The notes under the pieces: generated by a model | The model's database searches: none | Seen by the model: the letters and a program-made list of their open reading frames with translations, nothing else | What the model was told of the DNA's origin: nothing | Source: a virus | Lineage: Duplodnaviria > Heunggongvirae > Uroviricota > Caudoviricetes | Strand: one strand, 5' to 3' | Virus record (IMG/VR): IMGVR_UViG_2617270980_000003 | Length of the DNA: 64,000 bases | Part shown: piece by piece, positions 19,308-42,472 of the stretch | Layout of the letters: every line of letters starts with the position of its first letter | Position numbering within the stretch: the first letter of the stretch is position 1 | Program-made: the position numbers and the translations under genes

Positions 19308-21397
19308 CCTCCGGAAGTCAGCCAGGGGTTAACATCGTCAGTTACTGTTTTCTTCCGTTTTTGTTTTTTAACAGGCGTGGATACCGGTTCCGGTGAGGAT
19401 GACGGTTCGGTACTGTCCTGGACACACTCCAGCCAGGTCTCCCGGCTCGCCCACTCCGGTGCATCCGGCCAGCGGATCTTTTCGTATCCATGCAGAATGA
19501 CCAGAGCCTCGGCATACACCATCAGGTCAAAAGCTTCGTTGGCACCGCGACCCGGCTTACTCCATTTCCCGTCACTGCTCCGCTCTTCATACGTCAGTTC
19601 GTCGTAAAACCAGCTCCCCAGCCAGTCAGGGAAATGCACATAGCCTGGACCTGGCGAGTCACGCCATAACGCGTTATTCACCCGGTCTTTCAGGGCATCC
19701 GTCTGAAGAAGCCAGAGCGGCACATCACCTGCGGCCTGCGCCCGGCGGCCCGTTCGTCCGGTGTTATCAGGGAATGTACGGCTGATCAGTTTTGCGCGCC
19801 GGATGCTGTCACCCTTAAACAGGTAAATACGTTTACCAAGGCCATCACGACGGCAACGACGCCAGAATTTATAGGCATTATCAGTGACCCCGTCTTCACC
19901 GCCGGAGTCCACCGCCATTGCCATCAGTCGCATTTGTTGAGAAGGATCGGAGGCCAGCGGCCAGCTTTTATGAAAAACATCCGTCAGCAGGACATCCCAG
20001 TCTTCCGGATAGCTGGCCGGATCAATTCGCTGGCTCTCCCCGTCGCAGTCACTGCGCAATGACTGCGTGATGTTGTAACGATCAATAATCCAGCGTTCGC
20101 CACGACTGCCATAGCCCGTTACCTGAACCACAAAACGGCGATGACGTCCCGCCTGCACATCCACTGTCGCCACAAGGAAATTAACGCCATCCGGCACACT
20201 GCGGGAAGGAACTAGCTCTGCCCGCTGCTCAAGCAGTTCACTTTTTCGTTGCTCCATGCTGGCACGAGGAAGATAAGGCAATCCCCAGTCGGTGTTGATA
20301 ACCGCCCTGAGTGTTTCTTCGCTTCCTGTCGCTTCATACTCCTGTTCTGCAGTCAGTAATTTGTAAACCAGTTGCGCCCAGGTCTGATACGCAGCAGCTG
20401 GCCCTTCCATCCAGAAACTGGCGATACGGGAGCGGCGCGGTTCACCGGAAACGTTGCCGTTACGATCAATAACCTGACCTTCACGCAACCAGACTCCTGC
20501 ACTATTGAGCTCACGCTTTTTCTCCGCAGTGATAATGCCGCTGCAGTGCGGGCAAAGTAGATACGCCGCCTCACTGGCTTTAAAGGGATCCGGTTCATTA
20601 CGGTAGCCGGTCATGGCATCCATGGCTGGCTGAAAATATTCACCGCAGTGCGGACATGACCAGTACCAGCGGCGGCGGTCACCACGATTGTAAAGGGAAA
20701 GAATACCAGTCGTCGGTGGCGCTTCATGAGGCGACTTACGTCGCCATTTGCTGTCGCAGATGTCACGTCCCGGCGAGCTCTCCACCAGAGTCATCCCGGC
20801 GGACATAAATGTGGTGGTACGTTTTGAGGCCAGGGAGAAACCATCACCCTCGCTGTCGATATTCTCCGGAAAACGGTCGTAATCGGTTAAGGCGACAAAC
20901 CGGTAATCCGACGACGACATAATGTTGACCGAGGGCCAACCAATTTTAAGGAACGAGCCATCCCTGAACGTCTTATCATGGACATTATTGTCGTTACGAC
21001 GTGGACTCATTCTTTTCTTTACCGCCGCACTGCTTCTGAACGTTCTGTCGAGGCGCTTTTTAGAATGCTCGCGGGCCTTATCTTCGGTCATCTGCACAAC
21101 GAGCATGTCCGAAGGATCGCAAACGATGGTATAGACAATCCATCCATCGATCAGACCAATGGTCTTCCCTGTTCGCGCAGGACCAACAAAAATCACCGCA
21201 TCGTATTCACGCGATGCCAGGCAGTTCATGGGCTCAATGATGTAGGGTGTCAGTTCAGGATCCCATGGCACCGAGTTACCAGCCCCCTTGGGAACACGCA
21301 TGAATTTTTTAACAGCCTCCGAAATCGGCATGCGACGTGGTGGGGAAAATCCTGCCGATATGTCCCTTCCCAAATTTCGGGCTGATGAAAAACCCAT
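19298..21397 (-). CDS. terminase large subunit (lambda A-like)
   Basis: 699 aa; CPHCGEYF motif region resembles lambda gpA; follows Nu1-like gene. Confidence 0.88.
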   Translation of the reverse strand: MGFSSARNLGRDISAGFSPPRRMPISEAVKKFMRVPKGAGNSVPWDPELTPYIIEPMNCLASREYDAVIFVGPARTGKTIGLIDGWIVYTIVCDPSDMLVVQMTEDKAREHSKKRLDRTFRSSAAVKKRMSPRRNDNNVHDKTFRDGSFLKIGWPSVNIMSSSDYRFVALTDYDRFPENIDSEGDGFSLASKRTTTFMSAGMTLVESSPGRDICDSKWRRKSPHEAPPTTGILSLYNRGDRRRWYWSCPHCGEYFQPAMDAMTGYRNEPDPFKASEAAYLLCPHCSGIITAEKKRELNSAGVWLREGQVIDRNGNVSGEPRRSRIASFWMEGPAAAYQTWAQLVYKLLTAEQEYEATGSEETLRAVINTDWGLPYLPRASMEQRKSELLEQRAELVPSRSVPDGVNFLVATVDVQAGRHRRFVVQVTGYGSRGERWIIDRYNITQSLRSDCDGESQRIDPASYPEDWDVLLTDVFHKSWPLASDPSQQMRLMAMAVDSGGEDGVTDNAYKFWRRCRRDGLGKRIYLFKGDSIRRAKLISRTFPDNTGRTGRRAQAAGDVPLWLLQTDALKDRVNNALWRDSPGPGYVHFPDWLGSWFYDELTYEERSSDGKWSKPGRGANEAFDLMVYAEALVILHGYEKIRWPDAPEWASRETWLECVQDSTEPSSSPEPVSTPVKKQKRKKTVTDDVNPWLTSGGWL

Positions 21398-21405
21398 TAT
21401 TCCTC

Positions 21406-21963
21406 CTAGAGACTCTCTCCTTCCTCATCAGGAATTAATTCAGCAGCACAAGCCTCGTAGGATTTTTCCTGAAGAGTGTATCGCAGGTCATCAATGGCCT
21501 GCTGTACAACGCCGACGGCCTGAGGAGTCAGGGCGCAATCGCGTTCAAGAACATCCGGAATTGTCTCCAGAACCTGGACGACAGCCTTTCTCATGGACGA
21601 ATAGACGATGACTACTTCATCAACGGGGATGAGTTTTCGCTGCTCCTTTTCCAGCTTGATCCTTTCATTTTCAGATTGGTACCAGTCCTTTCTCTCTTTC
21701 GGCTCCATACGGGATGGATCATGAACAGAGTCTGCTGCCTCATGCTTCACACTAAACAGGGCTGGCCCGACATGCTGCAGGGCGTAAACGGGGTTCCCCC
21801 TGATAGTCGCAGCCACAGGAGTGTTGGCCGCGAGGAGCCGTTTTTTTACTGTGTCCCGGTGAAGCCCAAAGGCCTCAGCGATTTTAAAAACACTCCAGTA
21901 ATAAGCATCACCGATCCCGCTCACATTTGACATAAGCAACTCCATCTGGCAGGTGAAAATCAT
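21406..21963 (-). CDS. terminase small subunit (Nu1-like, N-terminal HTH); start uncertain
   Basis: HTH segment FKIAEAFGLHRDTVKKRL near N-terminus; directly upstream of the large subunit. Confidence 0.7.
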   Translation of the reverse strand: MIFTCQMELLMSNVSGIGDAYYWSVFKIAEAFGLHRDTVKKRLLAANTPVAATIRGNPVYALQHVGPALFSVKHEAADSVHDPSRMEPKERKDWYQSENERIKLEKEQRKLIPVDEVVIVYSSMRKAVVQVLETIPDVLERDCALTPQAVGVVQQAIDDLRYTLQEKSYEACAAELIPDEEGESL

Positions 21964-22495
21964 GTTTATTTATATATTTCAATTAATTGCAAACTGGTCT
22001 AATGACAGGGAGAAAAAAATATTGTACAGGTGAAAAGAGAAATAACTTTTAATTATCAATAAATTACCAAACATGCTGCCGCCGCCATGGAAATGCAAAA
22101 ACTAGCCTTTTTCCGCGACGCTCCCGCCCCGTGGCAGGGACCCCCACTGGGAGGACCCGACAGCCTGACAACCGTGACGAGCATCTGAAACAGAGCTTTA
22201 CATAATGGCATGGGGATAATTCAGAAGGACATCACAGCATGCCCACACAAATTAGTGTGAGTGTCCTGTTTCTTACTACGCGCAGGACTGACGAGCATGA
22301 GGGGAAAATACGAGAACCGAAATGCCTTATCTTCAGAAATGCAGCCGGCATCCGAACTGGACGATATTGTAAATTCACCTAAATACGAGGCATTGCTGTA
22401 GTTGAATTGCATTGCTGTATTAGCCTGACAGTGACAGAATACGATATTGACTCTGTCACTTGTGAAATGGTCAGAATGGTTAGCAGTTATGGTGA

Positions 22496-22702
22496 TCAGT
22501 CAACCACCAGGGAATAATCCTTCGTATTCTTATCGTGCTTTACTAACGCGGCCTCAATTGCCCTGAATGCTTCCAGAGACACTTGATGTTCTATACATGC
22601 AATTACAACATCCGGGTAACCCATCGAAATGGTGCTATTAAGCATAGTTTTTACACGAACCTGCTCCTGGGAGGGGGCATCAGTGTATTGTTCTTTATGC
22701 AT
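22496..22702 (-). CDS. hypothetical small protein (lambdoid cargo region)
   Basis: 68-aa ORF in AT-rich region between cos-proximal region and the gns-like gene. Confidence 0.3.
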
Positions 22703-22995
22703 TTTGTCGCTCCATGCGTTTGCTCTTCACTTACGGCTAAAAATATAACGTCAAATCACTCAGCATGAAAGAGTTAAAGATTCAGCGCGTTTCCCTTACA
22801 TAATCTGTCGTTTGTATTCTCTTCAGGCATACCGGAAAGACTAGGTATTGTCACACAACCAATACCATCGACAATCGAGATTTATACCTATTCGGTAATG
22901 TTTAAATATAACAAAACCCCGTAAAAACGAGGTTTATGGGTAATTTGTATTGTTGAATAGCATCTGATGAGAAATTGATGCTAATACTAAACAGA

Positions 22996-23172
22996 CTAGA
23001 TTAAATCAATCTTGATATCATAGCTTTCAAGACCAGTCATTTTTTCCCGTGCAGTAAACTGGATACTGGTAACTTCTTTCCCGGTCTTTTTCTTAAGCTC
23101 AATGATTTTTTTTGTTATATATTCAGAAATATCTGCTTCTGTTTTTGTTTTTAACTCTTCAATGTTCATCAT
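22996..23172 (-). CDS. GnsA/GnsB-family protein
   Basis: MNIEELKTK...KKTGKEVTSIQFTAREKMTGLESYDIKI matches E. coli GnsA/GnsB as recalled; ORF-track N-terminal extension unlikely. Confidence 0.75.
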   Translation of the reverse strand: MMNIEELKTKTEADISEYITKKIIELKKKTGKEVTSIQFTAREKMTGLESYDIKIDLI

Positions 23173-23341
23173 TTCCTCTTTTAGTCTGTTATGACTTTCC
23201 TGGTACACAGTAGTGTCAATTATATGGAGCAAACGTATAAAAGATAAGATGAAACATCGCAATAATCAACATACGACGGTCTAAATTTCACACAAACAGA
23301 TAAAGATGATTATCATTTATTATCAATGCATTAGAATCAAA

Positions 23342-23572
23342 TCAATTCAAGAGTCTCATTGCTGCTTCCAGAATTTCTTCTGAAGTTACATGTCGATCCG
23401 CTGCTACATAAATGACTTTATGATCTCCGGTCAGAGATGGAAACCCTGCAGCCATTACAGTGAGGTGTGTTGTTTCGCCATTTGGATATTCACGCATGAT
23501 GGTGTTAACTCCGGTCATCACTGGCACTACCATTGCTGGTTCAGAGTTAAAAAAAACTATTATTTTTTTCAT
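23342..23572 (-). CDS. hypothetical small protein (position of ynfN in Qin-like prophages)
   Basis: ORF with likely start MKKIIVF; family not recognised. Confidence 0.3.
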   Translation of the reverse strand: MKKIIVFFNSEPAMVVPVMTGVNTIMREYPNGETTHLTVMAAGFPSLTGDHKVIYVAADRHVTSEEILEAAMRLLN

Positions 23573-23605
23573 AATGTTACCGTAATATGTGAGTATCCAT
23601 CGACT

Positions 23606-23635
23606 AGACACTAAGCAAAAAAGCTCCCGAAGGGG
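23606..23635. terminator. bidirectional intrinsic terminator (hairpin flanked by A6 and T8)
   Basis: AAAAAAGCTCCCGAAGGGGCTTTTTTTT read directly. Confidence 0.5.
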
Positions 23636-23701
23636 CTTTTTTTTAAGATTTAACCAAATGAAATAAAAGGATTTATTTCAGGTCATGTCCACTTACCGAC
23701 C

Positions 23702-23726
23702 ACATCTATTCAAAAGCCCCGCAATG
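23702..23726. terminator. intrinsic terminator downstream of ogr (hairpin GCCCCGC-AAT-GCGGGGC with flanking A/T runs)
   Basis: Read directly from sequence. Confidence 0.5.
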
Positions 23727-23737
23727 CGGGGCTTTTA

Positions 23738-23986
23738 TCATATAGTCAAACTTAACTGATCGCGTCCATAGTGCGAAGCGGGAAAGACACCTGCGGGAAT
23801 AAAGTCAGGCGCTAATTTATCGCGCCGCTCACGCTTGGTGACAATTTTTTCAACACTGTTAAGCGTTGTGAATGACAAGCCGCATTCCATATTCTGGCAC
23901 TGATGGTATTGGCGAATCGTTACTTCACTAAGAGGCTTACTGGTGCGAGTGCGGGCCGTAGCGCCGCAGTGTGGGCATTTGAACAT
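23738..23986 (-). CDS. ogr: Ogr/Delta-family zinc-finger late transcription activator
   Basis: MFKCPHCG...RTS...RQYHQCQNMECGLSF matches P2 Ogr as recalled (four-Cys zinc finger). Confidence 0.9.
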   Translation of the reverse strand: MFKCPHCGATARTRTSKPLSEVTIRQYHQCQNMECGLSFTTLNSVEKIVTKRERRDKLAPDFIPAGVFPASHYGRDQLSLTI

Positions 23987-24024
23987 AATGGTGACTCCCC
24001 TGGGGAGTTGAACTCATCACCATT

Positions 24025-25158
24025 CTATTCAGTTTCTGCGATCCAGTCAGATATTTTTGCTTCAAAGTTAAGCTGTGTTGTGAATCCATTACTATCAACA
24101 TCATGCTGTACCTTGCTGATTATCCAGTCCTGGGCGTCAATATCAGCTTTAAAACCGGTTACCGTTGCGTGCATTTCCGGGTACAACTCCGCGCGCCCGC
24201 GCGCCAGGGTGATCGAAAACTCCGCCGCGCCGCGCTGTAACTGCTGCCACTTTGCCGCCGCTGCGCGCCTGGCGGCTTCTTCGTTCTGGAAGGTTTTACG
24301 CATAATAAAAACGTTACCTTCAGCGCCTTCAATATAGTCACCTTCCCTGCTGCTGCTCTTATCCGCTTTTTTAGTTGTGGCACGACGACGGACACTGACC
24401 TTTTTCTTTTTCCCGTAATTCAGATCAAGCCAGTACGCGCGGACGCCGGTATAAGCGTCACGATCAGCAACGCGGAAGCGGTGCCGGTCGCCACTGCTGC
24501 GCGTGATGGCAATCGACGGAATAGCCTTCCCTGATGCTGTGAAACCACCACCCGGCACGATAAATAACAGACTGCCATTTTTTACCGTGGCGATGGCCCC
24601 TAACATTTCCGCCATTCTGGTCAGAAATGACATATCGCTTTCCTGAGTCTGATCGGCGTGGTCAATTTCCACATCCATCAACAGATCGCTGATTTGCGGC
24701 GTCAGGTCATACCGTTTTGCGATAGCGGACACAACCCGCTCCACAGTCACATCATGCCAGGAGACTTCACGCTTCACGTTAAACTCTTCTCTGAAATCTG
24801 CACTCCTGGCGGTCACCGTGATACGGTCTGGCGGCCCGTCATGCGCGACTTCATCAACCGTGTACACGCCCTTATAAACCAGCGCTTCACCCATCCACCC
24901 CAGCCAGAAAGACAACTCAGCACCGCGCAGCGGAAGGGCAACGCCTCCATCAGTATCATCCAGCTCTAATGTCAGCTGATCGGCGTCAAATCCCCTGTTG
25001 TCCGTCAGGCTGATGGATATCACGCGATCTGATAATTCTGTTAACACCTTTCCGCCCTGCCGGACGCTGAATGCCGGTATTTTTAACGCCTCCGTCAGGA
25101 TGTCATCGACACCGCCAGCCGCGCCCGAAATCATACTGCTGATCACTGAAACACTCAT
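24025..25158 (-). CDS. D: P2 gpD-like tail protein (late control D family)
   Basis: About 378 aa, gpD-like; ATG at 25158 preceded by GGGAGGG; ORF-track start at 25272 is TTG. Confidence 0.85.
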   Translation of the reverse strand: MSVSVISSMISGAAGGVDDILTEALKIPAFSVRQGGKVLTELSDRVISISLTDNRGFDADQLTLELDDTDGGVALPLRGAELSFWLGWMGEALVYKGVYTVDEVAHDGPPDRITVTARSADFREEFNVKREVSWHDVTVERVVSAIAKRYDLTPQISDLLMDVEIDHADQTQESDMSFLTRMAEMLGAIATVKNGSLLFIVPGGGFTASGKAIPSIAITRSSGDRHRFRVADRDAYTGVRAYWLDLNYGKKKKVSVRRRATTKKADKSSSREGDYIEGAEGNVFIMRKTFQNEEAARRAAAAKWQQLQRGAAEFSITLARGRAELYPEMHATVTGFKADIDAQDWIISKVQHDVDSNGFTTQLNFEAKISDWIAETE

Positions 25159-25218
25159 ACACCCTCCCGTTTTGCTGAATAATTCCACGCGGGCGCGCGT
25201 GGGAGAATTCGTTTTAGT

Positions 25219-25236
25219 TGTCAGAGAGATAGCACA
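25219..25236. promoter_or_regulatory. Ogr-type late promoter element TGT-N12-ACA in the D/FI divergent intergenic region (putative P_F)
   Basis: TGTCAGAGAGATAGCACA; 18-bp stretch CGTTTTAGTTGTCAGAGA identical to the one upstream of P at 42381. Confidence 0.5.
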
Positions 25237-25311
25237 ACCAGAAAGGCGTGAAGCTGTTACGTCAATCAGCAATCATGGTGGCGAACTCAACAAAACGTAA
25301 TGGTGACAAAC

Positions 25312-26502
25312 ATGTCTGAGACACGTTTTCACGGTGCTCGCACCAAAGAAGAAACCGACATCACGAAGGTAATTAACGACATTGACTCCAGCGTCATTGG
25401 CGTAATTGTCATCGCTGATGACGCGGACGAAGACGCATTTCCACTCAACACCCCAACGCTTATCACGCGGCCTCAGTCGATGCTGGGCAAGGCGGGGAAA
25501 ACAGGGACGCTGTACAAAACGCTGAAAGCCATTTCAGACCAGGCAAGCGCGAAAGTCATTGTTGTTCGTGTCGCCGCAGCCAAGCCGCTGGAAGGCGACG
25601 CAGAAGCGGAAACGCAAGTGCAACTGATTATCGGTGGCTCTGATGCTGAAGGTAACTACACCGGCATGTATGCGCTTCTGACTGCCGAACAGAAGACACA
25701 GTATCGACCGCGCATCCTGGCGGTTCCTGAATACGACACCGAAGAAGTGACGGCACAGCTTTGTGTGATCGCCAAACAGCTTCGCGCCTATGTTTATGCA
25801 AGCTGTAACGGCTGCAAGACGCTGGCGGAAGCCCTCGCGTATCGTAAAACCTTCGCATCACGCGAACTCACGCTGATCTGGCCTGACTACATCGCATATA
25901 ACCAGGTGTCCGGGGAAAATGAAGTATTCCCGGCCCCGGCCTATGCGGTAGGGCTGCGCGCGTTTATTGATAACCAGTACGGCTGGCACCGCTCGCTATC
26001 TAACATTGCCGTCAGCAATGCGCTTGGCATTTCGAAGGATGTTTTCTGGGCGCTTCAGGCTGAAGACAGTGACGCACAGACGCTGAACAACGCCGAAATC
26101 ACCACCATCATCAAGCGTAATGGCTTCCGTTTCTGGGGTAACCGCACCACAGACACCAATGAATTTGTGTTTGAGGTGTACACCCGCACGGCGCAAATCC
26201 TGGCGGACACCATCGCAGAGGCGCAATTTGAAACCATTGACGGGCCACTCACCCCGACCAACGTGAAAGACGTGGTGAGCGCGATTAACAAGAAACTCAG
26301 TGCACTGGTCACAGCTGGCAAGTTGCTTGGCGCGGAAGCCTGGTTTGACATCGTGGACAACGGAACCGCAAACCTGATTCAGGGCAAAGTGGCGATCCGC
26401 TACAAGTACACGCCGGTGCCACCGATGGAAGATTTGACGCTGATCCAGACGTTCACCGATGAATATTTTGAAGGCGCGTTTTCGTCTCTGGGGAGTAACT
26501 AA
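25312..26502 (+). CDS. FI: tail sheath protein (P2 FI-like)
   Basis: About 396 aa; strong collinear match to P2 FI as recalled (FPLN.P.LIT, GFRFWGNRT, YTRTAQ, YKYTPVPP). Confidence 0.92.
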   Translation: MSETRFHGARTKEETDITKVINDIDSSVIGVIVIADDADEDAFPLNTPTLITRPQSMLGKAGKTGTLYKTLKAISDQASAKVIVVRVAAAKPLEGDAEAETQVQLIIGGSDAEGNYTGMYALLTAEQKTQYRPRILAVPEYDTEEVTAQLCVIAKQLRAYVYASCNGCKTLAEALAYRKTFASRELTLIWPDYIAYNQVSGENEVFPAPAYAVGLRAFIDNQYGWHRSLSNIAVSNALGISKDVFWALQAEDSDAQTLNNAEITTIIKRNGFRFWGNRTTDTNEFVFEVYTRTAQILADTIAEAQFETIDGPLTPTNVKDVVSAINKKLSALVTAGKLLGAEAWFDIVDNGTANLIQGKVAIRYKYTPVPPMEDLTLIQTFTDEYFEGAFSSLGSN

Positions 26503-27015
26503 ATGGCGATTCCACCAAAACTACGGCTGTTCACCTGCTTTGTGAACAGCGTGAACAATATCGGCAAAGTGACATCTGTCACGCTGCCAAAACTGACCCG
26601 CAAAACTGACGACTATCAGGGCGGCGGGATGATTGGCTCTGTTGCTGTCGATCTCGGACTGGATAGCGGCGCGCTTGATGCCACGATGGTTGTAGGCGGC
26701 CTGGTTCAGGCTCTGCTACTGGAATACGGCGGCGATCTGGACGGAACGCTTATCCGATTCACCGGGGAATATTACACATCCGGCGAGAGTCAGATCGTTG
26801 ACGTGGAAATGCGCGGCAAATTCACCGAAATCGACGGCGGCGAAAGCAAGCAGGGCGAAGATACGTCCGTAACCTACGCCATTAAAAACACGTACTACAA
26901 GCTGTCAATTGACGATAAGCCCATCTGGGAAATTGACCTGCTGAACTTCGTGTACAAACGCAACGACGAAAATATTTACCCTTCCCGCGTAATGTCTGCG
27001 CTGGGCATGGGATAA
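26503..27015 (+). CDS. FII: tail tube protein (P2 FII-like)
   Basis: 170 aa immediately after sheath gene. Confidence 0.9.
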   Translation: MAIPPKLRLFTCFVNSVNNIGKVTSVTLPKLTRKTDDYQGGGMIGSVAVDLGLDSGALDATMVVGGLVQALLLEYGGDLDGTLIRFTGEYYTSGESQIVDVEMRGKFTEIDGGESKQGEDTSVTYAIKNTYYKLSIDDKPIWEIDLLNFVYKRNDENIYPSRVMSALGMG

Positions 27016-27068
27016 CTAACAACCACTACAGGCGCGGCATCGGGTGATGCCGCCCGGAGATTAAAACG

Positions 27069-27380
27069 ATGACCGAAGAAAACACCGTAACACTGACACG
27101 CCCGATTAAACGCGACGGCAACGAAATCAAAACCATCACGATCACTGACGAAGTGAAACAGGCTGGTACCCTGCGCGGCCTTCGCCTGGTGAACGTGATG
27201 AATATGGACGTGGACAGCATCAGCACCCTGCTAACCCGCTGCACTTCCCCGCGCCTGAAGCTCAAAGAAATCAGCGAAATGGCAACATCTGACTTTGTTG
27301 AACTTTGCGAGGCGCTCACGCCTTTTTTAGCGCCGAAGGAGCCTGGCACGAAGAACGAGACGGAGACGGAGAGCGAGTAA
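27069..27380 (+). CDS. E: tail assembly chaperone E
   Basis: 103 aa between tube and tape measure; contains slippery heptamer. Confidence 0.85.
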   Translation: MTEENTVTLTRPIKRDGNEIKTITITDEVKQAGTLRGLRLVNVMNMDVDSISTLLTRCTSPRLKLKEISEMATSDFVELCEALTPFLAPKEPGTKNETETESE

Positions 27381-27541
27381 ACGCGCCCCACTTTGACCTG
27401 ATCGATGATCTGGTTGCTGATATAGCAGTTATTTTCAACTGGCCGCCCTCAGAGGTTTTCACTATGTCCCTGAGTGAGGTGATAGCCTGGCGTGAACGGG
27501 CGGCTATCCGAAGCGGAAACAGTGAAGATGAAAGACCTTAA
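27069..27541 (+). CDS. tail assembly chaperone E+E' (product of -1 programmed frameshift at T_TTT_TTA, 27323-27329)
   Basis: Heptamer TTTTTTA in E frame; -1 frame continues open to 27541 (FFSAEGAWHEE...), as in P2 E/E'. Confidence 0.75.
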
Positions 27542-30500
27542 TATCCGTGTCGCCTTCAGTGCGATTGATAAGTTAACCCGCCCGGTAAATGCCGCCCGCA
27601 ACTCAGTGGGCGGCTTATCTGAATCCCTCAAAAAAACACAATCGTCTATCAAAGATCTGGAAACGCAATCCCAGGCATTCAACCGCCTGAATGAGCGCGT
27701 TAAAAAGACATCCCAGCAACTCACCACAACACAGCGAGCCTTTGACGGCCTGAATAAAGCACAGAAAAACGGCACGGTACTAACCGACGCACAGCGCGAG
27801 CGCATGACGGCACTGGCAGCGAAACTTGATCGCCTGAATGCCAGCCGGTCACAGGAGACAGCAAAACTCCAGCAAGCGTCCCAGGCGCTGCGCGCGCACG
27901 GCGTTTCACTGGCGGGCGGCGATCGCACAATTCAAAGCGCTATCAGACGCACTGAGCAATACAACCAGACGCTTGAGAGAGAACGGCGACAACTTGCCGC
28001 AGTCACCAACGCGCGCGCCCGTTATGACCGTCTGAGCGCCACAGCGGGCAAATTGCGCACCGGCGGCGCGGTGGCGATTGGCGCAAGCGCGGGAGCGGGC
28101 TACGCTGCCGGACGCTTCCTGGCCCCTGCCGTGGGTTTTGATGAGGAAATGTCGCGCGTAGGCGCACTGACCCGCCTGGATAAAGGCGATGAACAGTTTG
28201 CCGCCCTGCGCGCCCAGGCCAAAAAACTTGGCGCTGAAACCGCATTTACCACGCGAGACGCCGCCAGCGGGCAAGCCTTCCTGGCAATGGCTGGCTTTAC
28301 ACCACAGTCAATTCAGGCTGCGCTGCCTGGCGTTCTGAATATGGCGCTAGCCGGTGGCATGGATCTGGGTGAGTCCGCTGATATCGGTTCAAACATCCTG
28401 ACGCAATTCAAGCTGTCATCAGATCAGATGGACAGGGTTGGCGATACGCTAACAGCCGCATTTACCCGTACCAATACCGACCTGCGCGCCCTGGGCGACA
28501 CAATGAAATACGCGGGGCCAGTGGCGGCTAATCTGGGTATTAGCCTGGAAGAGGCATCCGCTATGGCGGGGATGCTTGCCAATAACGGTCTGCGCGGCAG
28601 TGACGCGGGTACAGCATTACGTTCCAGTCTATCCCGCCTTGCTTCACCACCAAAAGCCGCGGCTGATGCTCTGAAAGAGCTAGGCGTGTCGGTTGCCGAC
28701 GCCAACGGGAAAATGCGCCCGATGGAAACGGTACTGTTAGACCTTTTCAAAGCCACACAGAAATACGGGCAGGTTGATCAGGTATCTTTCTTCAAAAATA
28801 TCGCCGGTGAAGAGGCCTTTGTGGGCCTCCAGACGCTGGTACAGGCGGCAGGCTCGGGAGAACTACAAAAGCTCACAAAAGAACTTCAGGGCGCTGCCGG
28901 TGAATCCGCTACCGTCGCAAAAAAAATGGCGGACAACCTGGGCGGGGATCTAAAAGAACTCGATAGCGCCTGGGAAGCATTCCGTATCCAGATTGAAGAA
29001 CTGGCGGACGGCGCACTGCGAAAACTCACCCAGGCACTGACCGGCACGATCGGCGTGATGACTGAATGGGCGAATAAGAATCCGCAGCTATCAAAAACCC
29101 TTCTGGCTGTTGGCGGCAGTGTGCTGGCCCTCACCGCCGGGATTGGCGCAACGTCCCTGGCTATTGGCTTACTTCTGGGGCCACTGGCAAAACTTCAACT
29201 CGGCTTTGCCCTGCTAACCAGCGGGAGCGGGCTGGGTGGCGCGGTGACACTGTTCAGCCGCCTGGCTGGCGTTATTTCCGGGCCGCTTGGCGGCATCCGT
29301 GGCTGGGGTGTCGTCTTCAGTAGAATGACCGGCAACGCCGGGAAACTGGCTGGCGCGCTTGCCCCATTGAGAGGACTGCTTGCCGCCGCGTTTATCTCAC
29401 CAGGTGCCGCCCTGGGCGGAATTGTAAAAGGGCTTGGTAGTCTCCTGCTTCGCCTGACCGGCATACCTGCAATCATGGGGATCGCTAGCTCGGCCCTCTC
29501 GATGCTCGGCGGCGCGCTGTCATTGCTGTTAAGCCCGATCGGGCTGATTGGCGCGGCCTTCATTGCCACAGGGTTGCTTATCTGGCGATTCTGGGAGCCG
29601 ATCAAAGCCTTCTTTGCGGGCTTCTTTGCCGGTGTAATGCAGGCGCTTACGCCGTTCCGTGATGCCTTCGCCGGACTGGCCCCCGTCTTTGATGTGATCT
29701 CAAATGCCGTTTCTCAGTTGTGGCAGTGGTTCAGCAACCTGCTTTCACCAATGACGACCAGCAAAGAGACATTGGATAAATGCGCAAGCGCTGGGGAGAC
29801 GTTCGGCAAAGTGTTTGGCCTGGCAATTCAGGGGCTAATGTTACCTCTGACTGGATTGGCCAAAATGGTTGGCTGGATACTTGAAAAGCTGGGGCTGATT
29901 CCGTCCGGGATTGAAGCGGCGAAAGCAAAAGCGGAGAAAGTGCAGAAGGAACTCACACCGGCAGGATTGGCTATGCTGCAGGACAAGGTTGGCACGCTCA
30001 CTGTCGATATGAAAGCAGTAACCGCGCCACCTATCGCCCCACCATCACCAGTGATTGCTGTTGATACGGGAACTCAACGGCGGTTACAGAAAATTGCGGA
30101 CAATACCGGCGGGATGCTGGATGCAACCAAAAAGCGGATCGGCCCTGGCGATATCGTGTTTAAGAATCTGCCCCGCGCATTAGCCGTCCACGGCGCATGG
30201 CAGGAAGCACAATCACCCCCAGGCGCAAACCTGGCCCAACTTAGCGCGCGCCCGGTTATCGCGGCGGCATCAGCACCGATTAAACCGGCAGTTGAAGTAC
30301 AGGCTATTAGCGGGCAATCCAGTAAACAAGCCAGCAAACCGGCGCAAAACACCGCTCCTGATGAAATACATATTCACATTCATATGCACGGCGATCTCAG
30401 CAACGACGCCCGCGACATTGCACGGATGGTGACTGATGCAGTTGGGGCAGAACTTAACAAGCGTTCCCGCTCTGGTAGCAGTTTCAGAGACAAAGATTAG
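27528..30500 (+). CDS. T: tail tape measure protein (P2 T-like)
   Basis: About 990 aa, Ala/Gly-rich with hydrophobic central segments, between E' and U; ORF-track start at 27492 is GTG, ATG at 27528 chosen. Confidence 0.85.
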   Translation: MKDLNIRVAFSAIDKLTRPVNAARNSVGGLSESLKKTQSSIKDLETQSQAFNRLNERVKKTSQQLTTTQRAFDGLNKAQKNGTVLTDAQRERMTALAAKLDRLNASRSQETAKLQQASQALRAHGVSLAGGDRTIQSAIRRTEQYNQTLERERRQLAAVTNARARYDRLSATAGKLRTGGAVAIGASAGAGYAAGRFLAPAVGFDEEMSRVGALTRLDKGDEQFAALRAQAKKLGAETAFTTRDAASGQAFLAMAGFTPQSIQAALPGVLNMALAGGMDLGESADIGSNILTQFKLSSDQMDRVGDTLTAAFTRTNTDLRALGDTMKYAGPVAANLGISLEEASAMAGMLANNGLRGSDAGTALRSSLSRLASPPKAAADALKELGVSVADANGKMRPMETVLLDLFKATQKYGQVDQVSFFKNIAGEEAFVGLQTLVQAAGSGELQKLTKELQGAAGESATVAKKMADNLGGDLKELDSAWEAFRIQIEELADGALRKLTQALTGTIGVMTEWANKNPQLSKTLLAVGGSVLALTAGIGATSLAIGLLLGPLAKLQLGFALLTSGSGLGGAVTLFSRLAGVISGPLGGIRGWGVVFSRMTGNAGKLAGALAPLRGLLAAAFISPGAALGGIVKGLGSLLLRLTGIPAIMGIASSALSMLGGALSLLLSPIGLIGAAFIATGLLIWRFWEPIKAFFAGFFAGVMQALTPFRDAFAGLAPVFDVISNAVSQLWQWFSNLLSPMTTSKETLDKCASAGETFGKVFGLAIQGLMLPLTGLAKMVGWILEKLGLIPSGIEAAKAKAEKVQKELTPAGLAMLQDKVGTLTVDMKAVTAPPIAPPSPVIAVDTGTQRRLQKIADNTGGMLDATKKRIGPGDIVFKNLPRALAVHGAWQEAQSPPGANLAQLSARPVIAAASAPIKPAVEVQAISGQSSKQASKPAQNTAPDEIHIHIHMHGDLSNDARDIARMVTDAVGAELNKRSRSGSSFRDKD

Positions 30501-30512
30501 GAGAGCAAAACA

Positions 30513-31001
30513 ATGATGATGGTTTACGGAATGTTCGTCTTTGAGTTAAAAACCATTCCCCACCAACAATTACAGCAGTCAAAGACATGGCGGCATGTAA
30601 AGAACGAGCGCATAAACCGATCGGCAAAGTGGCAATACATTGGTGCAGGTGACGATCAGATTACCTTATCCGGTGTTTTGTACCCATCAGTGACCGGCGG
30701 TAAGGTGAGTCTAACTGTGCTCGATACACAGGCCTACACCGGACGCCCCTGGCCTCTTATCAGCGGCACCGGGCGGATCTATGGCATGTATTCGATAACG
30801 CAGCTTCAGACCACCGATACTGAATTTGACCAGTATGGGGAGCCGAAGAAAATAGAATTTACGATCACGTTTCAAAGGCAGGATGAAGACCTGCGCGAAA
30901 GCCTCCAGTCTTCATCAGTGAGTGATTTACTCGGCAACCTGCAAAACACAGCCAACTCAGCGCTGAATAATATCAGCGCCGCCGCATCCAGTCTGTTTTA
31001 A
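30513..31001 (+). CDS. U: tail protein U (P2 gpU-like)
   Basis: 162 aa immediately after tape measure. Confidence 0.85.
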   Translation: MMMVYGMFVFELKTIPHQQLQQSKTWRHVKNERINRSAKWQYIGAGDDQITLSGVLYPSVTGGKVSLTVLDTQAYTGRPWPLISGTGRIYGMYSITQLQTTDTEFDQYGEPKKIEFTITFQRQDEDLRESLQSSSVSDLLGNLQNTANSALNNISAAASSLF

Positions 31002-31167
31002 ACAAGTAAAAATATACCCCTCGGATTGGTTTTCACCGAGGGGAGCAACAAGAGACCTAGCTCTAATTTTGTTCAATCATGTGTAAATTGTGCAGACTAA
31101 ATGATTGTCCTTAGAATTTTTGTAAGTAAAATAACCACAATTTTTCCTAATTGCGCGACTAGACTCT

Positions 31168-32138
31168 ATATGAAAAACCTTTCCTCAATTGATTACGCAA
31201 AACTTTTCTTTGCGTTTTGTATCATTTTTATACACACAGACATTTTAGGCGGCAACAGTAATTATATAGGATATGTTACTTGCCAGGGACTGCTAAGGAT
31301 TGCAGTGCCATTCTTTTTCATTACTAGTGGATATTTTTATTTTTCTGTAATGCAAAAAAATAAAATTAAAAAATGGTTTTCTCACAATATAAAAACCTAT
31401 GCTCTATGGACGCTTCTTTACTTACCAATAATACTAGGATTAGTTGGTTTTATTAGGGCGGGTAAGCCTTTAGCGACAGACCTTACATATTTATCTCTAA
31501 ATGCAGTATTTGGATTTTGGCACTTATGGTTTTTCCCTGCCCTGATAGTATCGGCATTATTAACATTACTTTTAGCTAAGCTAAAAGATCGCACATTAAT
31601 AATCATATGCTGCATACTTTATACGTGCGGCACGTTACTTCAATATCGCGCAAATTATTCCATTGACATAAATCGTGACATATGGTCTCTCGCTACAGTT
31701 TTCTTTTCCAGAAACGGTCTTTTCATGGGTTTTCCATTGTTTATGCTTGGATACCTTATAAATAAAAATAACATAAGAAATAACAATACATATTTACTCA
31801 TTGGTTCCATTATTTTGGTCATCATTGAGGCATCCGTAAATTATTCATATGGCACATATACCTTTGATATGCTTTTTTCACTTCCATTCGCTGGTGTTTT
31901 TGTTTTTTTAAAAGTTCTAGATATCACCCTGAAAACAAAAAACACCTTCACAATTCGCGAGCACTCAAAAAACATATATCTTATACAAATCTATGCCATT
32001 CAGTTTGCAAAACAATTTGCATCTGATTGGTTAGTCATAACAACAATCGCATGCACTATTTGCATTAGCTATTCAATAGCTAATATCATTAAAGATAATT
32101 TAATTGCAAACTTTAGACTAAAAAGCCTATCAAATTAA
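31168..32138 (+). CDS. membrane acyltransferase (acyltransferase-3 family, Oac-like), AT-rich cargo at the P2 Z/fun position
   Basis: About 323 aa, multiple hydrophobic helices, low GC versus neighbours; located between tail fibre assembly gene and the sheath block. Confidence 0.75.
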
Positions 32139-32566
32139 TCCTCAGGGATATCAGGCCAGATAATGTCGGGGGCTTTTGATGTGTCAATACGCATTAATAG
32201 CACCCGATATTTCTTCCACTTCGCAAGCTGAATAACTTCATCATCGGTTGAAATACCAGCTTCAATCGCATCCTGCCGCCACGCAATTTCTGTACCTGCA
32301 TTTTCAGCCAAGTCTTTTTTTTGCTGTATAGCTAACGCAATTAACTGATCGGCTGTAGGCTCTGATACATCAACCCATACAGGCTGACCGGAAGCGTCGC
32401 CTCCTCTACCTTTTCCTTCTGGCGGCCTTCCTGTGTATTTCTGATAAATATCAGATTCAACTTCAACAATGTCATCAGGCCATGTATTCGTTTTTTCATA
32501 GTCTGATTTCATTGACTCAAAAAAGAATGAGTTATTCTTAGCACTGAAATATATATTACTAAACAT
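32135..32566 (-). CDS. G: tail fibre assembly protein (P2 G-like)
   Basis: About 143 aa directly downstream of tail fibre gene; C-terminal conserved WPD motif region. Confidence 0.75.
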   Translation of the reverse strand: MFSNIYFSAKNNSFFFESMKSDYEKTNTWPDDIVEVESDIYQKYTGRPPEGKGRGGDASGQPVWVDVSEPTADQLIALAIQQKKDLAENAGTEIAWRQDAIEAGISTDDEVIQLAKWKKYRVLLMRIDTSKAPDIIWPDIPED

Positions 32567-32568
32567 AA

Positions 32569-33855
32569 TTAACACCCCACACCAAAGCAAAAGAATGGTT
32601 TTGACGCAGCGACGCCTGTTCTTTCTAATAAAGAAACCTGCATATCTCGATCGCTTAATCTTTTAACTCCAGCAATCGCCGACGCTGCTGCATCACCAGC
32701 CACATTGCATGGCAAAATACCAAAACAGCGAACAGGCCAACCAATAGGAAAAGGGGCTGAAGCCCAGCCGCCACCATCAGTATTCCCCCAACACCACTGT
32801 AAAATTATTCCATTTGGAAAACGCACCCAACCGGCATCAGCCATTACCTGAGTAAAGTCTGTATTTTTCACATACCCCTGAATGCCCCAATCATTCTGAA
32901 AAATCAATTTTTTCACATCAGCATTCATTGTGAATGCATTAACTCGACGATCGGAGATCTCCCCTGATGGAGATAAAGCAAAATCAATATAGTTCGCGCC
33001 GTTTCCCATTATGCCGCAAATAATCGACGACATAATTGCTCCACCAAATGAAAAATCCAAACCACATGCACTTCCATTTTCACTGCTTTTATTTTTGATA
33101 TGAATACCTGAAAAACCACTCTCTTTTTCCACGATCATTTCGTGTCCGACTGCTGAGATAATACCTTCAACAATCACATCACCAGTAACCCTCCCACCAG
33201 AAGCAGGTAACGCATCGGCTGCTAATTGAACTGTTTTATCCAAACCAAGGTTTTTGATAGCCTCTCCAACCAACCCGGCCTTAATCAATTCTTTAAGAGC
33301 ATTTTCAATCAACAGGTACTGGCTATGCGGATTAGCGGTGTCAACGTGCTTTTTTATCGCGTTGTCTGTATAGGTTTTCACCTCAATTACAGCACTATCA
33401 ACATACTGCCGGGTTGCCAGCACAACGGACGGATCAACTTTCAGGGTAACGGCATCAGTGCTCGATACCGTGAGCATCATCCTTATAACCTGCGTACGGC
33501 CTGATCCTTCCTCTGTTGTGGCCTTGTACGTCTCCGGGCAGTTAGCCACAGCAATCAAGATACCATCAGCATCAAAGAGTCCTATTTCACGAATCCACCA
33601 CCCGCCAACGGATTCAGGAATAATCTGTTCCGCAATAATCTGGCTGTCGTTTTTATCGTCCACTGACAGCGAGTTAAGCTGGGCGCGGCGCACCTCGTTA
33701 ACCAGCGCTGTCTGTGCCTGGCTTGGTGTTGGTGATTTGCCGCCGCCGTCGCCAACTGCGAGCGAGGTGATTTCTAACTTCTCACCCAGCGCAGCCATAT
33801 TTGATAATTTTGCCGCCCCCTGAGCAGTCAGCAGGGCAAAGAATTTAGCCGCCAT
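32569..33855 (-). CDS. H: tail fibre protein (P2 H-like)
   Basis: 428 aa; N-terminus MAAKFFALLTAQGAAKLSNMAALG typical of P2-family tail fibres. Confidence 0.85.
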   Translation of the reverse strand: MAAKFFALLTAQGAAKLSNMAALGEKLEITSLAVGDGGGKSPTPSQAQTALVNEVRRAQLNSLSVDDKNDSQIIAEQIIPESVGGWWIREIGLFDADGILIAVANCPETYKATTEEGSGRTQVIRMMLTVSSTDAVTLKVDPSVVLATRQYVDSAVIEVKTYTDNAIKKHVDTANPHSQYLLIENALKELIKAGLVGEAIKNLGLDKTVQLAADALPASGGRVTGDVIVEGIISAVGHEMIVEKESGFSGIHIKNKSSENGSACGLDFSFGGAIMSSIICGIMGNGANYIDFALSPSGEISDRRVNAFTMNADVKKLIFQNDWGIQGYVKNTDFTQVMADAGWVRFPNGIILQWCWGNTDGGGWASAPFPIGWPVRCFGILPCNVAGDAAASAIAGVKRLSDRDMQVSLLERTGVAASKPFFCFGVGC

Positions 33856-34459
33856 TTGTTACCTCTAACGTATCAATAATATGAATTGCGCCCCCGGGAA
33901 AATACCCGCCACTGACTTCTACGGCTTCAGGCATATAGGGGTAAATAGTCATCACGTCACCGCCATAACACCCGGCGTGGGCGTATACCTCTCCCTTCGC
34001 CTGCATACTGATTGCAAGGCCGGTCAGGTGGCGTGAGCATGGTTTTGCATCAGCGATCAGGCGCTCAAGCTCGAGATAGGTTTCTTCTGTAATCCCTGAG
34101 TCAGAAACACCAATTTCAAGTTGAAATGTTCCCCGCTCGCCTCCGTTCTGCCACCATTCAACGACCTTTATCAGGAAGCCGAACGGCTCAACGACACGGC
34201 GCAGCGCCGCAATAGTTCCCTTTTGCCGGTGTACCAGCCAGGCGGATTTAATCACCTGTCGCTTTGTCTGTTCTGACCAGCCTTTATCCCAGCGATCAAC
34301 CGATAACGCCCAGGCCAGATAAGGCAGTAAAGCAACCGGGCATTCATCAGGGTTCCACAGCGTTTTCAGGTCTACGGGCAAATCACTCACGCGCCAGGTT
34401 GCGGCCTCGGCACTGCGCATAAAATCACTGGCTGAAGGTGGCAACAGACTGTTATTCAT
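33845..34459 (-). CDS. I: baseplate assembly protein I
   Basis: 204 aa at the P2 I position. Confidence 0.85.
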   Translation of the reverse strand: MNNSLLPPSASDFMRSAEAATWRVSDLPVDLKTLWNPDECPVALLPYLAWALSVDRWDKGWSEQTKRQVIKSAWLVHRQKGTIAALRRVVEPFGFLIKVVEWWQNGGERGTFQLEIGVSDSGITEETYLELERLIADAKPCSRHLTGLAISMQAKGEVYAHAGCYGGDVMTIYPYMPEAVEVSGGYFPGGAIHIIDTLEVTNGG

Positions 34460-35345
34460 CGGTTCCGCCTCTCGTGATGGTGACCGAAGCGCACCGCGCC
34501 GCCTGTGTATCGCTGATAATCAGCCGTTCAGGTAAATCCAGTTCCACACGCTGCACGCCCTGCACGTGTAACGCCGCCAAAATTGCAGACCTGGCAACAT
34601 CAAGCCCGATCCGCCACTGGCTTTTGAGCCACTTCTGCAACGACGCCTCGGCAGCGTTCACAATGGGTTCTGACTCTGGGCCTGGGTAGAGATACAGCGT
34701 GGCATTGATGTCATAACTGATAATCTCAGCGCTCTGGACTGTCAGCCTGTCACCCACAGGGCGGACACTTTCATCTGATAATTTTGCGTTGACCGTTGCG
34801 ATCAGCTCGTCTGAAGCCGTTCCGTCACCTTCAGCAGAGAGCACCGAAACAACAACTTCAGCCGGCGCCGGACTTGATGCCTTAACATCAGCAACTTTCC
34901 CTGATGCGCTTTTAGCGAAGTATTCGTAAGCGCCGGTAGGCCCGGCAACACTCAATCCTTCGAATGCAGATTGCGCACGTAAGCGCAGCGCGGCGTCACT
35001 TTCCATTACCGCATCTGTTGTATCTGTCTCCTCAACAATCGTCAGTCGCTCTGTATTGTTATTTGCCGCCAGGTTATCCAGATCTCCGCCGGTGGAATGG
35101 CTTAACATGCAAGCTGCAGCACCGTCATTTATGACCTGTCGCAACATCAATTCGCGATAAGCAATCACCTGAGCGAGCACCGTCAAAGGCTCCGACTCAA
35201 GCTCCAATGCTGCTGCTATGGCCTGTTGTTGTCCCTCCGGATAAGCGGCAATAATCATCTCTTTCACATCACTCAGGATGATTTCGAAATCCAGCGTCGC
35301 GATGATTTCCGGTGGTGGAAGCTCTGATAAATCAACTGTCGCCAT
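34452..35345 (-). CDS. J: baseplate assembly protein J
   Basis: 297 aa at the P2 J position. Confidence 0.85.
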   Translation of the reverse strand: MATVDLSELPPPEIIATLDFEIILSDVKEMIIAAYPEGQQQAIAAALELESEPLTVLAQVIAYRELMLRQVINDGAAACMLSHSTGGDLDNLAANNNTERLTIVEETDTTDAVMESDAALRLRAQSAFEGLSVAGPTGAYEYFAKSASGKVADVKASSPAPAEVVVSVLSAEGDGTASDELIATVNAKLSDESVRPVGDRLTVQSAEIISYDINATLYLYPGPESEPIVNAAEASLQKWLKSQWRIGLDVARSAILAALHVQGVQRVELDLPERLIISDTQAARCASVTITRGGTDE

Positions 35346-35700
35346 TGCCTGACTCCTTCACCTTTACTGCACCGCTTACCGGCTGCATTGTTGTGGTAAC
35401 CAATCCGCCTAACTCAACCGTCACCGCCCCGGCGTCTGAATACGTAATATCAACCTGGTTAAGTGCTATCCGCGGTTCCCATTGCGTCAGCGCAATCACC
35501 GTGGCGCTCATTAGCTGAAGGCGTGTTGTTTCGTTTTTCGGGGCGTCCAGCAAATCAGGTAACAAGCTGCCGTACGACCGGCGCATTACGCGTGACCCCA
35601 ACGGCGTCAGCAGGACATCTTTCACGGACTGCCAAAGGTGATCGCTATCTGAAACCGTCCCTGTGCCGCCCTGGTTCATTCCCGTATATTTCGCCGTCAT
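35332..35700 (-). CDS. W: baseplate wedge protein W (gp25-like)
   Basis: 122 aa, P2 gpW-like. Confidence 0.85.
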   Translation of the reverse strand: MTAKYTGMNQGGTGTVSDSDHLWQSVKDVLLTPLGSRVMRRSYGSLLPDLLDAPKNETTRLQLMSATVIALTQWEPRIALNQVDITYSDAGAVTVELGGLVTTTMQPVSGAVKVKESGNGDS

Positions 35701-36278
35701 GCCGTCCCCTTAGTCCTGCTATTGCCACTCTCAACACCACCATGATCATGATCGTCAGCCTGGACGCCGTTTGACTTCAGTGCGCCGCCGCTGTGAGTTA
35801 CATCGCCGGTCATCTTTCCGCCCTCAGTGAAATCAAAGGTTTTCGCTTTCAGATGTTTTGTGCACTCCACCTCTGGCGCATCGAGCGTGATTTTTGTTGC
35901 TGCCTGGATGGTGGCGGTTTTCATTCCGCCGGCACTCAGTGCGCCCGCCTTCGCGTCATAGCTAAATTCAGCCCCATCAGGCGCGGTGATCATCATCTGC
36001 ATCAGGCTACTGGCGGGGGCGTCGTTTTCGTTGCTGTAGAGGCTGCCCAGCACAACGGCTGTTTCAGGATTGCCGCCCAGACATCCCAGCAAAACCTGTT
36101 CGCCCAGCGACGGCGCACACCAGAATTTGAAAGCACCGGCGCGCGTTGTCGTCCAGCGAAGCCATGTTGTCTGCAAATCATCGCTCTGCACCCGTACACT
36201 TTTACCGTCTTTCGATATGTCAAAAACCACGCCCACACGGAGCACGTTAGACAGGAGGCGCAACAGTTCGGCACTCAT
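35697..36278 (-). CDS. V: baseplate spike/hub protein V
   Basis: 193 aa, P2 gpV-like. Confidence 0.85.
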   Translation of the reverse strand: MSAELLRLLSNVLRVGVVFDISKDGKSVRVQSDDLQTTWLRWTTTRAGAFKFWCAPSLGEQVLLGCLGGNPETAVVLGSLYSNENDAPASSLMQMMITAPDGAEFSYDAKAGALSAGGMKTATIQAATKITLDAPEVECTKHLKAKTFDFTEGGKMTGDVTHSGGALKSNGVQADDHDHGGVESGNSRTKGTA

Positions 36279-42316: not shown

Positions 42317-42389
42317 GTTCTTTCCTGCCGGTTGGTTTCTGTTTTTCCATGATGTCAGTTGCTAAGTCATTGTCTCAACGCGTTTTAGT

Positions 42390-42407
42390 TGTCAGAGACG
42401 GCCCACA
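42390..42407. promoter_or_regulatory. Ogr-type late promoter element TGT-N12-ACA in the O/P divergent intergenic region
   Basis: TGTCAGAGACGGCCCACA; shares the 18-bp stretch CGTTTTAGTTGTCAGAGA with the D/FI region. Confidence 0.5.
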
Positions 42408-42472
42408 ACCCAAACAGCGGGAACGGCCCACGCGCGCGGGTTAATCTCTCCATCGAAACGAGAGGACACCGC

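Follow-up and report, generated by a model that had tools for sequence, protein, structure and literature searches.

Gene content and order of the tail region

The window analysed in this work is a stretch of 64,000 nucleotides (IMG/VR virus record IMGVR_UViG_2617270980_000003), which carries an intact P2-like (Peduoviridae) prophage at approximately 23.63-55.67 kb. Our subject is the block of sheath, tube and tape measure genes of this prophage (FI to U), which is inverted with respect to the gene order of P2, together with the short spacer that separates this block from the late control gene D. The genes were identified from the list of open reading frames (ORFs) and from Pfam scans of the window proteins, with matches above the gathering score.

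The F operon occupies 25312-31001 on the plus strand and consists of FI (sheath, 25312-26502), FII (tube, 26503-27015), E (27069-27380), E' (27305-27541), T (tape measure, 27492-30500) and U (GpU, 30513-31001). E', which contains the Phage_P2_GpE domain, lies in the -1 frame and is linked to E by a -1 frameshift (T-run at 27325-27331); the whole operon is collinear with the RefSeq annotation of the E. coli ES1 prophage. To the left of FI, the minus strand encodes D (baseplate hub/late control D, 377 amino acids; 24025-25158; PF05954, Phage_GPD) and the late activator ogr (Ogr/Delta zinc finger; 23738-23986; PF04606, Ogr_Delta, E=4e-19). To the right of U, the tail fibre and baseplate genes G (tail-fibre assembly, 32135-32590), H (32569-33855), I, J, W and V again occupy the minus strand (32135-36278, Pfam) and are contiguous with S, R, the lysis genes, X, L, M, N and O (up to 42316, according to the ORF list), beyond which P and Q are found on the plus strand (42470-45258, ORF list and Pfam). 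All tail ORFs are intact.

In the P2 reference record (NC_001895) the genes V W J I H G (fun/Z) FI FII E T U D ogr are all encoded on a single strand, and U overlaps the start of D. The FI-U block of the window thus runs opposite to the P2 order, as the first-pass annotation of this DNA had stated, and the gene calls on which that statement was based (the tail block, D, ogr and V-G) are borne out by the ORF listing and by Pfam. The divergence of FI from D was also correctly described: the ATG of D at 25158 is preceded by a GGAGGG Shine-Dalgarno sequence and FI starts at 25312, so that the two gene starts enclose a spacer of 153 bp (25159-25311). The convergence of U with G needs a qualification. 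The two genes do lie on opposed strands, but they do not face each other directly, as they are separated by an acyltransferase gene (31101/31170-32138, plus strand; PF01757, Acyl_transf_3), a cargo gene of low GC content (33%) that overlaps the stop of G tail-to-tail.

Distribution of the inverted layout among P2 relatives

The part of the window between 23.6 and 33.9 kb was compared with complete E. coli genomes by megablast. The closest match is a prophage of E. coli ES1 that adjoins fieF (97.7% nucleotide identity), followed by five further prophages with approximately 80% identity at other chromosomal sites, e.g. that of 30EVA2 between yegQ and yegS. These prophages are collinear with the window over D, the spacer, FI-U and H, except for the matches in H35 and H36, which end within T or U. 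The same order and the same junctions are present in independent complete chromosomes (E. coli ES1, 30EVA2, JX21CE33 and HUE1), and they are also found in Kluyvera. The order and the strands are moreover common to phages from three genera recognized by the International Committee on Taxonomy of Viruses, namely ST16-OXA48phi5.4 of Klebsiella (genus Reipivirus), P88 of Escherichia (Xuanwuvirus) and phiT5282H of Enterobacter (Novemvirus).

A broader picture was obtained by using the D protein to search a single genome of each species and examining synteny with tblastn at the 43 loci returned. All 33 loci in which D exhibits at least 64% identity and FI was recovered (L001-L005, L007-L031, L034, L043 and L048) have the order V W J I H -> <- U T E FII FI <-> D ogr, as far as their contigs extend, while the ten loci in which FI was recovered and D does not exceed 51% identity all keep the canonical order of P2. 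The inverted loci come from about 18 named enterobacterial species and from other isolates, some of them mislabelled; their hosts include Kluyvera, Symbiopectobacterium, Trabulsiella, Serratia, Kosakonia, Pantoea, Enterobacter, Mixta, Izhakiella, Pectobacterium, Brenneria, Salmonella, Providencia and Yersinia aleksiciae. P88-like D/FI loci (D 73-77%) were encountered in two assemblies with Gram-positive labels, L024 (one of the 33 inverted loci; Vagococcus sp. WN89Y) and L045 (a metagenome-assembled genome of Planococcaceae), for which contamination or mis-binning is the most likely explanation, rather than a true Gram-positive host.

The phage records agree with this division. Among the matches listed, D lies on the opposite strand, about 200 bp away, in 45 of the 45 records in which FI exhibits at least 57% identity; apart from the phages already named, these records include KSP20, 3LV2017, P884B11, 500465-2, Chuche, PhiR44_2, phiSM, SEN4/5 and 520873. 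On the other hand, the lower-identity records that were cross-checked are canonical and co-directional (P2, vB_YpM_476B, ST13-OXA48phi12.1, vB_Sal_PHB48, and phages of Ralstonia and Burkholderia). In a neighbour-joining tree of concatenated FI and D sequences the inverted loci, including that of the window, all fall into one clade, and the sampled lineages outside it are all canonical; FI and D of the window group with this clade and not with P2, 186 or Fels-2. The FI and D proteins of the window exhibit 57-76% identity to those of the clade phages (FI 68-74%, D 71-76%) vs 46-51% to those of P2.

The members of this clade resemble the window beyond the order of their genes. P88, phiSM, ST16-OXA48phi5.4, phiT5282H, SEN4/SEN5 of Salmonella and KSP20 of Serratia share the arrangement V W J I H (G) -> <- U T E' E FII FI <-> D ogr, and the clade phages have a divergent D/FI spacer of about 150 bp (approximately 130-160 bp in the clade as a whole), an activator box at a fixed position within it, a terminator after U and a slot for cargo genes between U and G. 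With P2 and 186 the window shares the gene set, the E/E' frameshift, the Ogr activator, the TGT-N12-ACA boxes and the divergent P/O control region. However, in P2 FI-U is co-directional with V-G and D, and the F operon ends with D, whereas in the window FI-U is inverted, the N-terminus of D is remodelled, D has apparently acquired a promoter of its own, and no P_V box was found. A different rearrangement is known in the P2-like Stenotrophomonas phage Smp131, in which late operons have exchanged members, putative TGT-N12-ACA promoters have been described, and P_P' and P_O' share one 18-nt site (PMC3931495). However, unlike in the window, the genes moved in Smp131 are V and W; FI-U is not inverted and no divergent D/FI promoter is involved.

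At least two phages with the inverted arrangement are functional. P88 is inducible with mitomycin and forms plaques, its burst size is approximately 65, and electron microscopy images of its virions are available (PMC5285337), while phiSM, a P88-like phage of Citrobacter rodentium, is active (PMC6456863). The suggestion of the first-pass annotation that the lineage tolerates the inversion therefore holds for a whole clade. The same annotation had treated related functional phages with this layout as an ancestral state that would speak against an anomaly; such phages do exist and the anomaly is refuted, but the arrangement is derived relative to P2 and fixed in the clade. That it is ancestral to the clade and functional can hardly be doubted, and it is the normal layout of a known large group of P2 relatives rather than a peculiarity of the window prophage.

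Given that the canonical order was found in all lineages sampled outside this clade, the simplest history is that the FI-U unit was inverted only once, long ago. The limits of the inverted segment can be placed by comparison with canonical relatives that lack cargo genes, in which a terminator hairpin follows the stop of G, with its T-run adjacent to the P_F box, and U either adjoins D or overlaps it; these junctions indicate a segment that begins a short distance upstream of the box and ends where U meets D. The first ~41 residues of the window D do not align with P2 D in blastp, while residues 42-377 do, and the N-terminus of D is variable also within the inverted clade. The non-aligning N-terminus fits a breakpoint at the beginning of the D gene.

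In our literature search, which included papers on the diversity of P2-like viruses and on P2-like phages of Burkholderia, we found no statement on the FI-U inversion or on a promoter on the D side. Since the arrangement itself is already present in known members of the clade, what the present analysis adds is the second bidirectional late promoter that we infer from it.

The D/FI spacer as a candidate bidirectional late promoter

The D/FI spacer contains a candidate Ogr box, GTTGTC-N10-CACAAC, at 25217-25238, with an 18-bp dyad core TGT-N12-ACA (TGTCAGAGAGATAGCACA) at 25219-25236, centred at 25227.5; the box occupies a fixed position in all spacers of the clade. The short TGT-N12-ACA motif alone is not evidence of a binding site, because its frequency in the window is at the level of chance (14 matches vs 14.9 expected). 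On the other hand, the extended dyad GTTGT-N12-ACAAC has three perfect matches in the window vs 0.05 expected, and two of them lie in divergent spacers, one between D and FI and the other between O and P. The O/P box, GTTGTC-N10-CACAAC at 42388-42409 (core 42390-42407), exhibits the same layout, with a GC-rich element on the P side. The third perfect dyad (62798-62819) is located inside a DUF968/NinG-like gene of a lambdoid prophage and has no -10-like hexamers at a distance of 34 nt; it is probably due to chance.

Each side of the D/FI box has a -10-like hexamer at a distance of 34 nt from the core of the dyad. For P_D, the predicted -10 hexamer on the minus strand is AATTAT (25179-25184) with TGn before it (TG at 25186-25187), which would place the start of transcription at ~25172 and leave a 14-nt leader to D. 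The predicted -10 hexamer of P_F is AATCAT on the plus strand (25271-25276), with a predicted start at ~25283 and a 29-nt leader to FI. There is no TTGACA-like -35 element on either side of the dyad.

This geometry can be compared with that of P2, for which the transcription starts are annotated in the GenBank feature table. The P2 record contains one "activator binding site; pO, pP promoters" between the divergent starts at 3016 and 3127, whose core (3063-3080) is centred 55.5 bp from both starts. The hexamers TAGCCT (left) and GAAACT (right) are located 34 nt from the core, and each start lies 7 nt beyond its hexamer. In the D/FI spacer of the window each hexamer lies 46 bp away from the centre of the dyad, exactly as in P2 P_P/P_O, so that the two control regions share the single dyad box, the hexamers 34 nt out and the starts 55.5 bp from the centre, annotated in the case of P2 and only predicted in the case of the window. 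In the unidirectional P_F of P2 the upstream side carries no -10-like hexamer (CCTGCC at the corresponding position). The bidirectional design, used once in P2 (P/O), is apparently used twice in the inverted clade (P/O and D/FI).

The geometry is conserved across the clade. An alignment of the spacers from nine lineages has zero gaps between the two hexamers, despite the wide divergence of the sequences, and its invariant columns comprise the half-sites of the box, positions A2 and T6 of both hexamers, A5 of the P_F hexamer, and the TG before the D-side hexamer.

A different kind of evidence comes from members of the clade of the Providencia type, in which the D/FI box reads GTTCTC-N10-GAGAAC in place of GTTGTC-N10-(C/G)A(C/G)A(A/C)C. 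We scanned viral contigs for this variant; the 80 matches listed are mostly in unrelated contigs, but in all 12 P2-like loci among them the box lies in a divergent spacer, six times between D and FI and six times between O and P. One 22-kb contig has the variant box in both spacers (L119 and L120). In the Providencia type all four sides have an NAnnnT hexamer at a distance of 34 nt from the core; in the window both the D/FI and the O/P box read GTTGTC...CACAAC. The D/FI box thus changes together with the O/P box across lineages, as expected if the Ogr homologue of each lineage reads both. This co-variation is the strongest available argument that the D/FI spacer would be a genuine bidirectional late control region.

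We therefore propose, with a probability of about 0.7, that D possesses an Ogr-dependent promoter that shares its activator box with P_F. According to this prediction the 153-bp spacer is most likely a bidirectional, activator-dependent late promoter, in which a single dyad-symmetric Ogr box lies ~55.5 bp upstream of two divergent starts, P_F rightward and the new P_D leftward, and would act in the same way as the lone box between P_P and P_O in P2. The bidirectional use of the symmetric element, which the first-pass annotation had raised as a possibility, is supported by every comparative test we carried out, be it of geometry, conservation or co-variation.

Several observations weigh against this proposal. 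The leader predicted for D is short (~14 nt), many lineages have a weak hexamer on the D side (GATCCT, GACCAT), and most members of the clade have a box with a degenerate right half-site (AGA for ACA). Conservation among homologous spacers does not constitute independent evidence lineage by lineage. The region of P_D contains a conserved GC-rich element for which the proposal does not account. Finally, no activator box was found upstream of V, candidates with up to two mismatches occurring at chance frequency, and the late regulon may therefore differ from that of P2.

The GC-rich element, a run of alternating CG (CCACGCGGGCGCGCGTGG) at 25183-25204, is located between the dyad and the -10 hexamer of P_D and is flagged as a hairpin by our scan. 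Its general form, CGCGCGCG, immediately precedes the -10 hexamer that faces D in every D/FI spacer and the one that faces P in every O/P spacer (window 25183-25204 and ~42435-42448; L003-L005; L119/L120; P_P of P2 at 3030-3046), and it never occurs on the FI or O sides. A CGCG element of this kind thus accompanies one -10 hexamer of each pair: that of P_P in P2, and those of P_D and P_P in the window. We considered whether the GC-rich hairpin and the T-run upstream of the box could be a relic of the ancestral terminator of the G operon, as canonical relatives do have a hairpin and T-run that abut the P_F box. However, this explanation was rejected: the GC-rich element lies 7-13 nt off the T-run, it is not always palindromic (the version in P88 alternates pyrimidines and purines but is not a palindrome), and it has a counterpart in P_P.

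The alternative that deserves most attention is that D and ogr are expressed from an ordinary, Ogr-independent sigma-70 promoter in the spacer, and that the dyad serves P_F alone, its symmetry being incidental. The conserved TGn of the D-side hexamer (extended -10) would indeed be able to support initiation without an activator, and a separate candidate promoter of ogr further downstream suggests that D-ogr might be partly uncoupled from late control. However, the distance of 34 nt between hexamer and box is that of the mapped P_P of P2 and is kept in every lineage, including the Providencia type with its differing box; there is no -35-like element, the corresponding region being GC-rich (CGCGCG), as in the activator-dependent P_P of P2; and the poor hexamers of many lineages (e.g. 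GATCCT) are unlikely to fire unaided. We regard this explanation as unlikely.

Expression of D by read-through from the V-G operon, antisense across U, T, E, FII and FI, is suggested by the location of G and D on the same strand. However, transcription would have to run for 6 kb antisense to the strongest late operon and collide with it head-on, after passage through the cargo gene and through a hairpin with a T-run on the minus-strand side (31018-31045), which makes this explanation very improbable. Excluded for practical purposes is a recent local rearrangement that left a defective tail module, or an artefact of assembly, the other possibility named by the first-pass annotation. The layout does depart from the textbook order of P2, and D has lost its upstream operon, but identical order and junctions in independent chromosomes, in more than 30 loci of other species and in the 45 phage records listed contradict this explanation, as do the functional phages with the same layout, the intact ORFs, and the proper terminators and ribosome-binding sites. 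The least plausible alternative, which we reject, is that FI-U is a site-specific invertible segment of the Gin/Hin/Cin/Pin type caught in one orientation: an invertase gene does lie at the U/G junction of some members (gp43 of P88, a frameshifted recombinase in 30EVA2), but those invertases adjoin genes for alternative tail fibres and for assembly (the usual H/G host-range switch), the acyltransferase is the sole gene between U and G in the window, which leaves no invertase there, no inverted repeats pair 25159-25311 with 31002-31100, and the other orientation was observed in 0 of ~80 relatives.

Returning to the shared Ogr box as the preferred explanation, the following scenario can be envisaged. 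The unit P_F-FI-FII-E/E'-T-U would have been inverted once, long ago, in a monophyletic enterobacterial sub-clade, in which the inversion became fixed. The F operon would close at its own terminator after U, and D-ogr would form a separate short operon, transcribed from P_D into ogr, which would preserve the positive feedback provided in P2 by read-through from P_F. Four late units (P-Q, O...G, FI...U and D-ogr) would then be driven from two bidirectional control regions. We give somewhat better than even odds to this scenario in its full form, i.e. that the late regulon of the sub-clade was rewired to two bidirectional, activator-dependent regions (P<->O and D<->FI), the second of which was born of the inversion that placed an Ogr site beside D; that the orientation-blind geometry at -55 let the operon flip and split; and that CGCGCGCG is an undescribed module of the "reverse" half of these promoters.

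Operon ends, cargo genes and significance of the inversion

A hairpin after U (CCCCTCGG...CCGAGGGG, 31018-31045) has a predicted energy of -18.8 kcal/mol according to RNAfold, and strong hairpins follow U in nearly all loci of the clade. Because the T-run of the window hairpin is on its minus-strand side, it probably terminates the G operon too, and may thus serve transcripts arriving from both directions. On the other side of the inverted block, ogr begins 38 bp past D and is followed by a hairpin with flanking A and T runs, read from the sequence at ~23708-23737. A consensus scan revealed a candidate internal promoter of ogr on the minus strand (CTGACT-17-TAGAAT, 24050->24022), which overlaps the stop codon of D; its hexamer TAGAAT/TAAAAT is kept across the clade, and in P88 it is located outside the coding sequence of D. 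The leader of ogr (23987-24024) has a conserved hairpin, ACTCCCC-n-GGGGAGT, in which the Shine-Dalgarno sequence of ogr makes up the 3' arm. Homologous leaders are present in L001-L031, with stem and loop sequences that differ between lineages, which suggests translational control of the activator.

In P2, S is separated from V by orf30, a terminator and P_V, while in the window S overlaps V (35697-36913). Because of this overlap, and of the lack of a box upstream of V, the genes from O through G possibly form one unit, and the window prophage may thus have a single late operon of ~10 kb from O to G.

The content of the convergent U/G junction varies among the members of the clade. The acyltransferase gene found in the window is replaced by an invertase and alternative tail-fibre genes in P88 and 30EVA2 and by DUF262 genes in ST16-OXA48phi5.4, and phiT5282H has no cargo at this position. 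The acyltransferase could be a lysogenic-conversion gene that modifies surface polysaccharides. A second, low-GC pair of cargo genes is located between the portal gene Q and the replication gene A (45664-47013 and 47293-48444, plus strand), in a position that corresponds to the old/tin slot of P2. One gene of the pair encodes a KAP-family P-loop nucleoside triphosphatase, which matches the PADLOC candidate defence family PDC-S20 (E=1e-74), and the other a YaaC-like protein, for which no PADLOC match was found.

The assignment of the prophage to Peduoviridae and to the inverted sub-clade agrees with every feature we tested. Pfam matches were obtained for the structural genes D, FI, FII, E, E', T, U, G, H, I, J, W, V, S, R, O, P and Q, and N, M, L and X were assigned by collinearity with the annotated, near-identical prophage of ES1. 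The regulatory and replication genes of the P2 type are also present (Pfam matches to Ogr_Delta, Phage_Cox, HTH_3 for a C-type repressor, Phage_GPA and Phage_integrase). The prophage has no close isolated relative: the best nucleotide match among deposited phages (megablast of 22-46 kb against phages) exhibits 72.7% identity over 15% of the query, in the terminase-portal region, and the same search returned lambdoid matches at the left edge. Near-identical prophages are found in RefSeq in E. coli ES1 and in Kluyvera sp. (D 98% identity).

The P2-like prophage sits inside a lambdoid prophage, with junctions near 23620-23640 and 55659-55680. The lambdoid phage genes to its left include those of the terminase (19298-21397), the portal and the tape measure (9368-12463), and lysis genes, among them a lysozyme (56953-57486), are located to its right. 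The phage HannyBb aligns without interruption across the insertion point, with 98.9% identity to 21398-23639 on the left and 96.9% to 55659-57496 on the right. A search for exact 12-mer repeats as attachment (att) sites gave no match; the HannyBb alignment revealed instead that the junctions share ~20 bp, with an imperfect core of ~13 bp, C(T/C)CCCGA(A/T)GG(A/G)GC, within a terminator hairpin.

In practical terms, the inverted order should not be flagged as a sign of a rearranged or defective P2-like prophage in genome annotation and in the triage of prophages. From the evolutionary point of view, the clade represents a natural experiment, which suggests that a dyad-symmetric activator site of the class-I type permits the inversion of an essential operon, and that a terminal gene such as D, with the activator gene ogr behind it, may thereby gain a co-regulated promoter of its own. 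The convergent U/G junction made by the inversion provides a terminator-flanked slot, in which different members of the clade carry different cargo. If the prediction of P_D is true, both the stoichiometry of D relative to the sheath and tube proteins and the autoregulation of ogr would be controlled in these phages otherwise than in P2.

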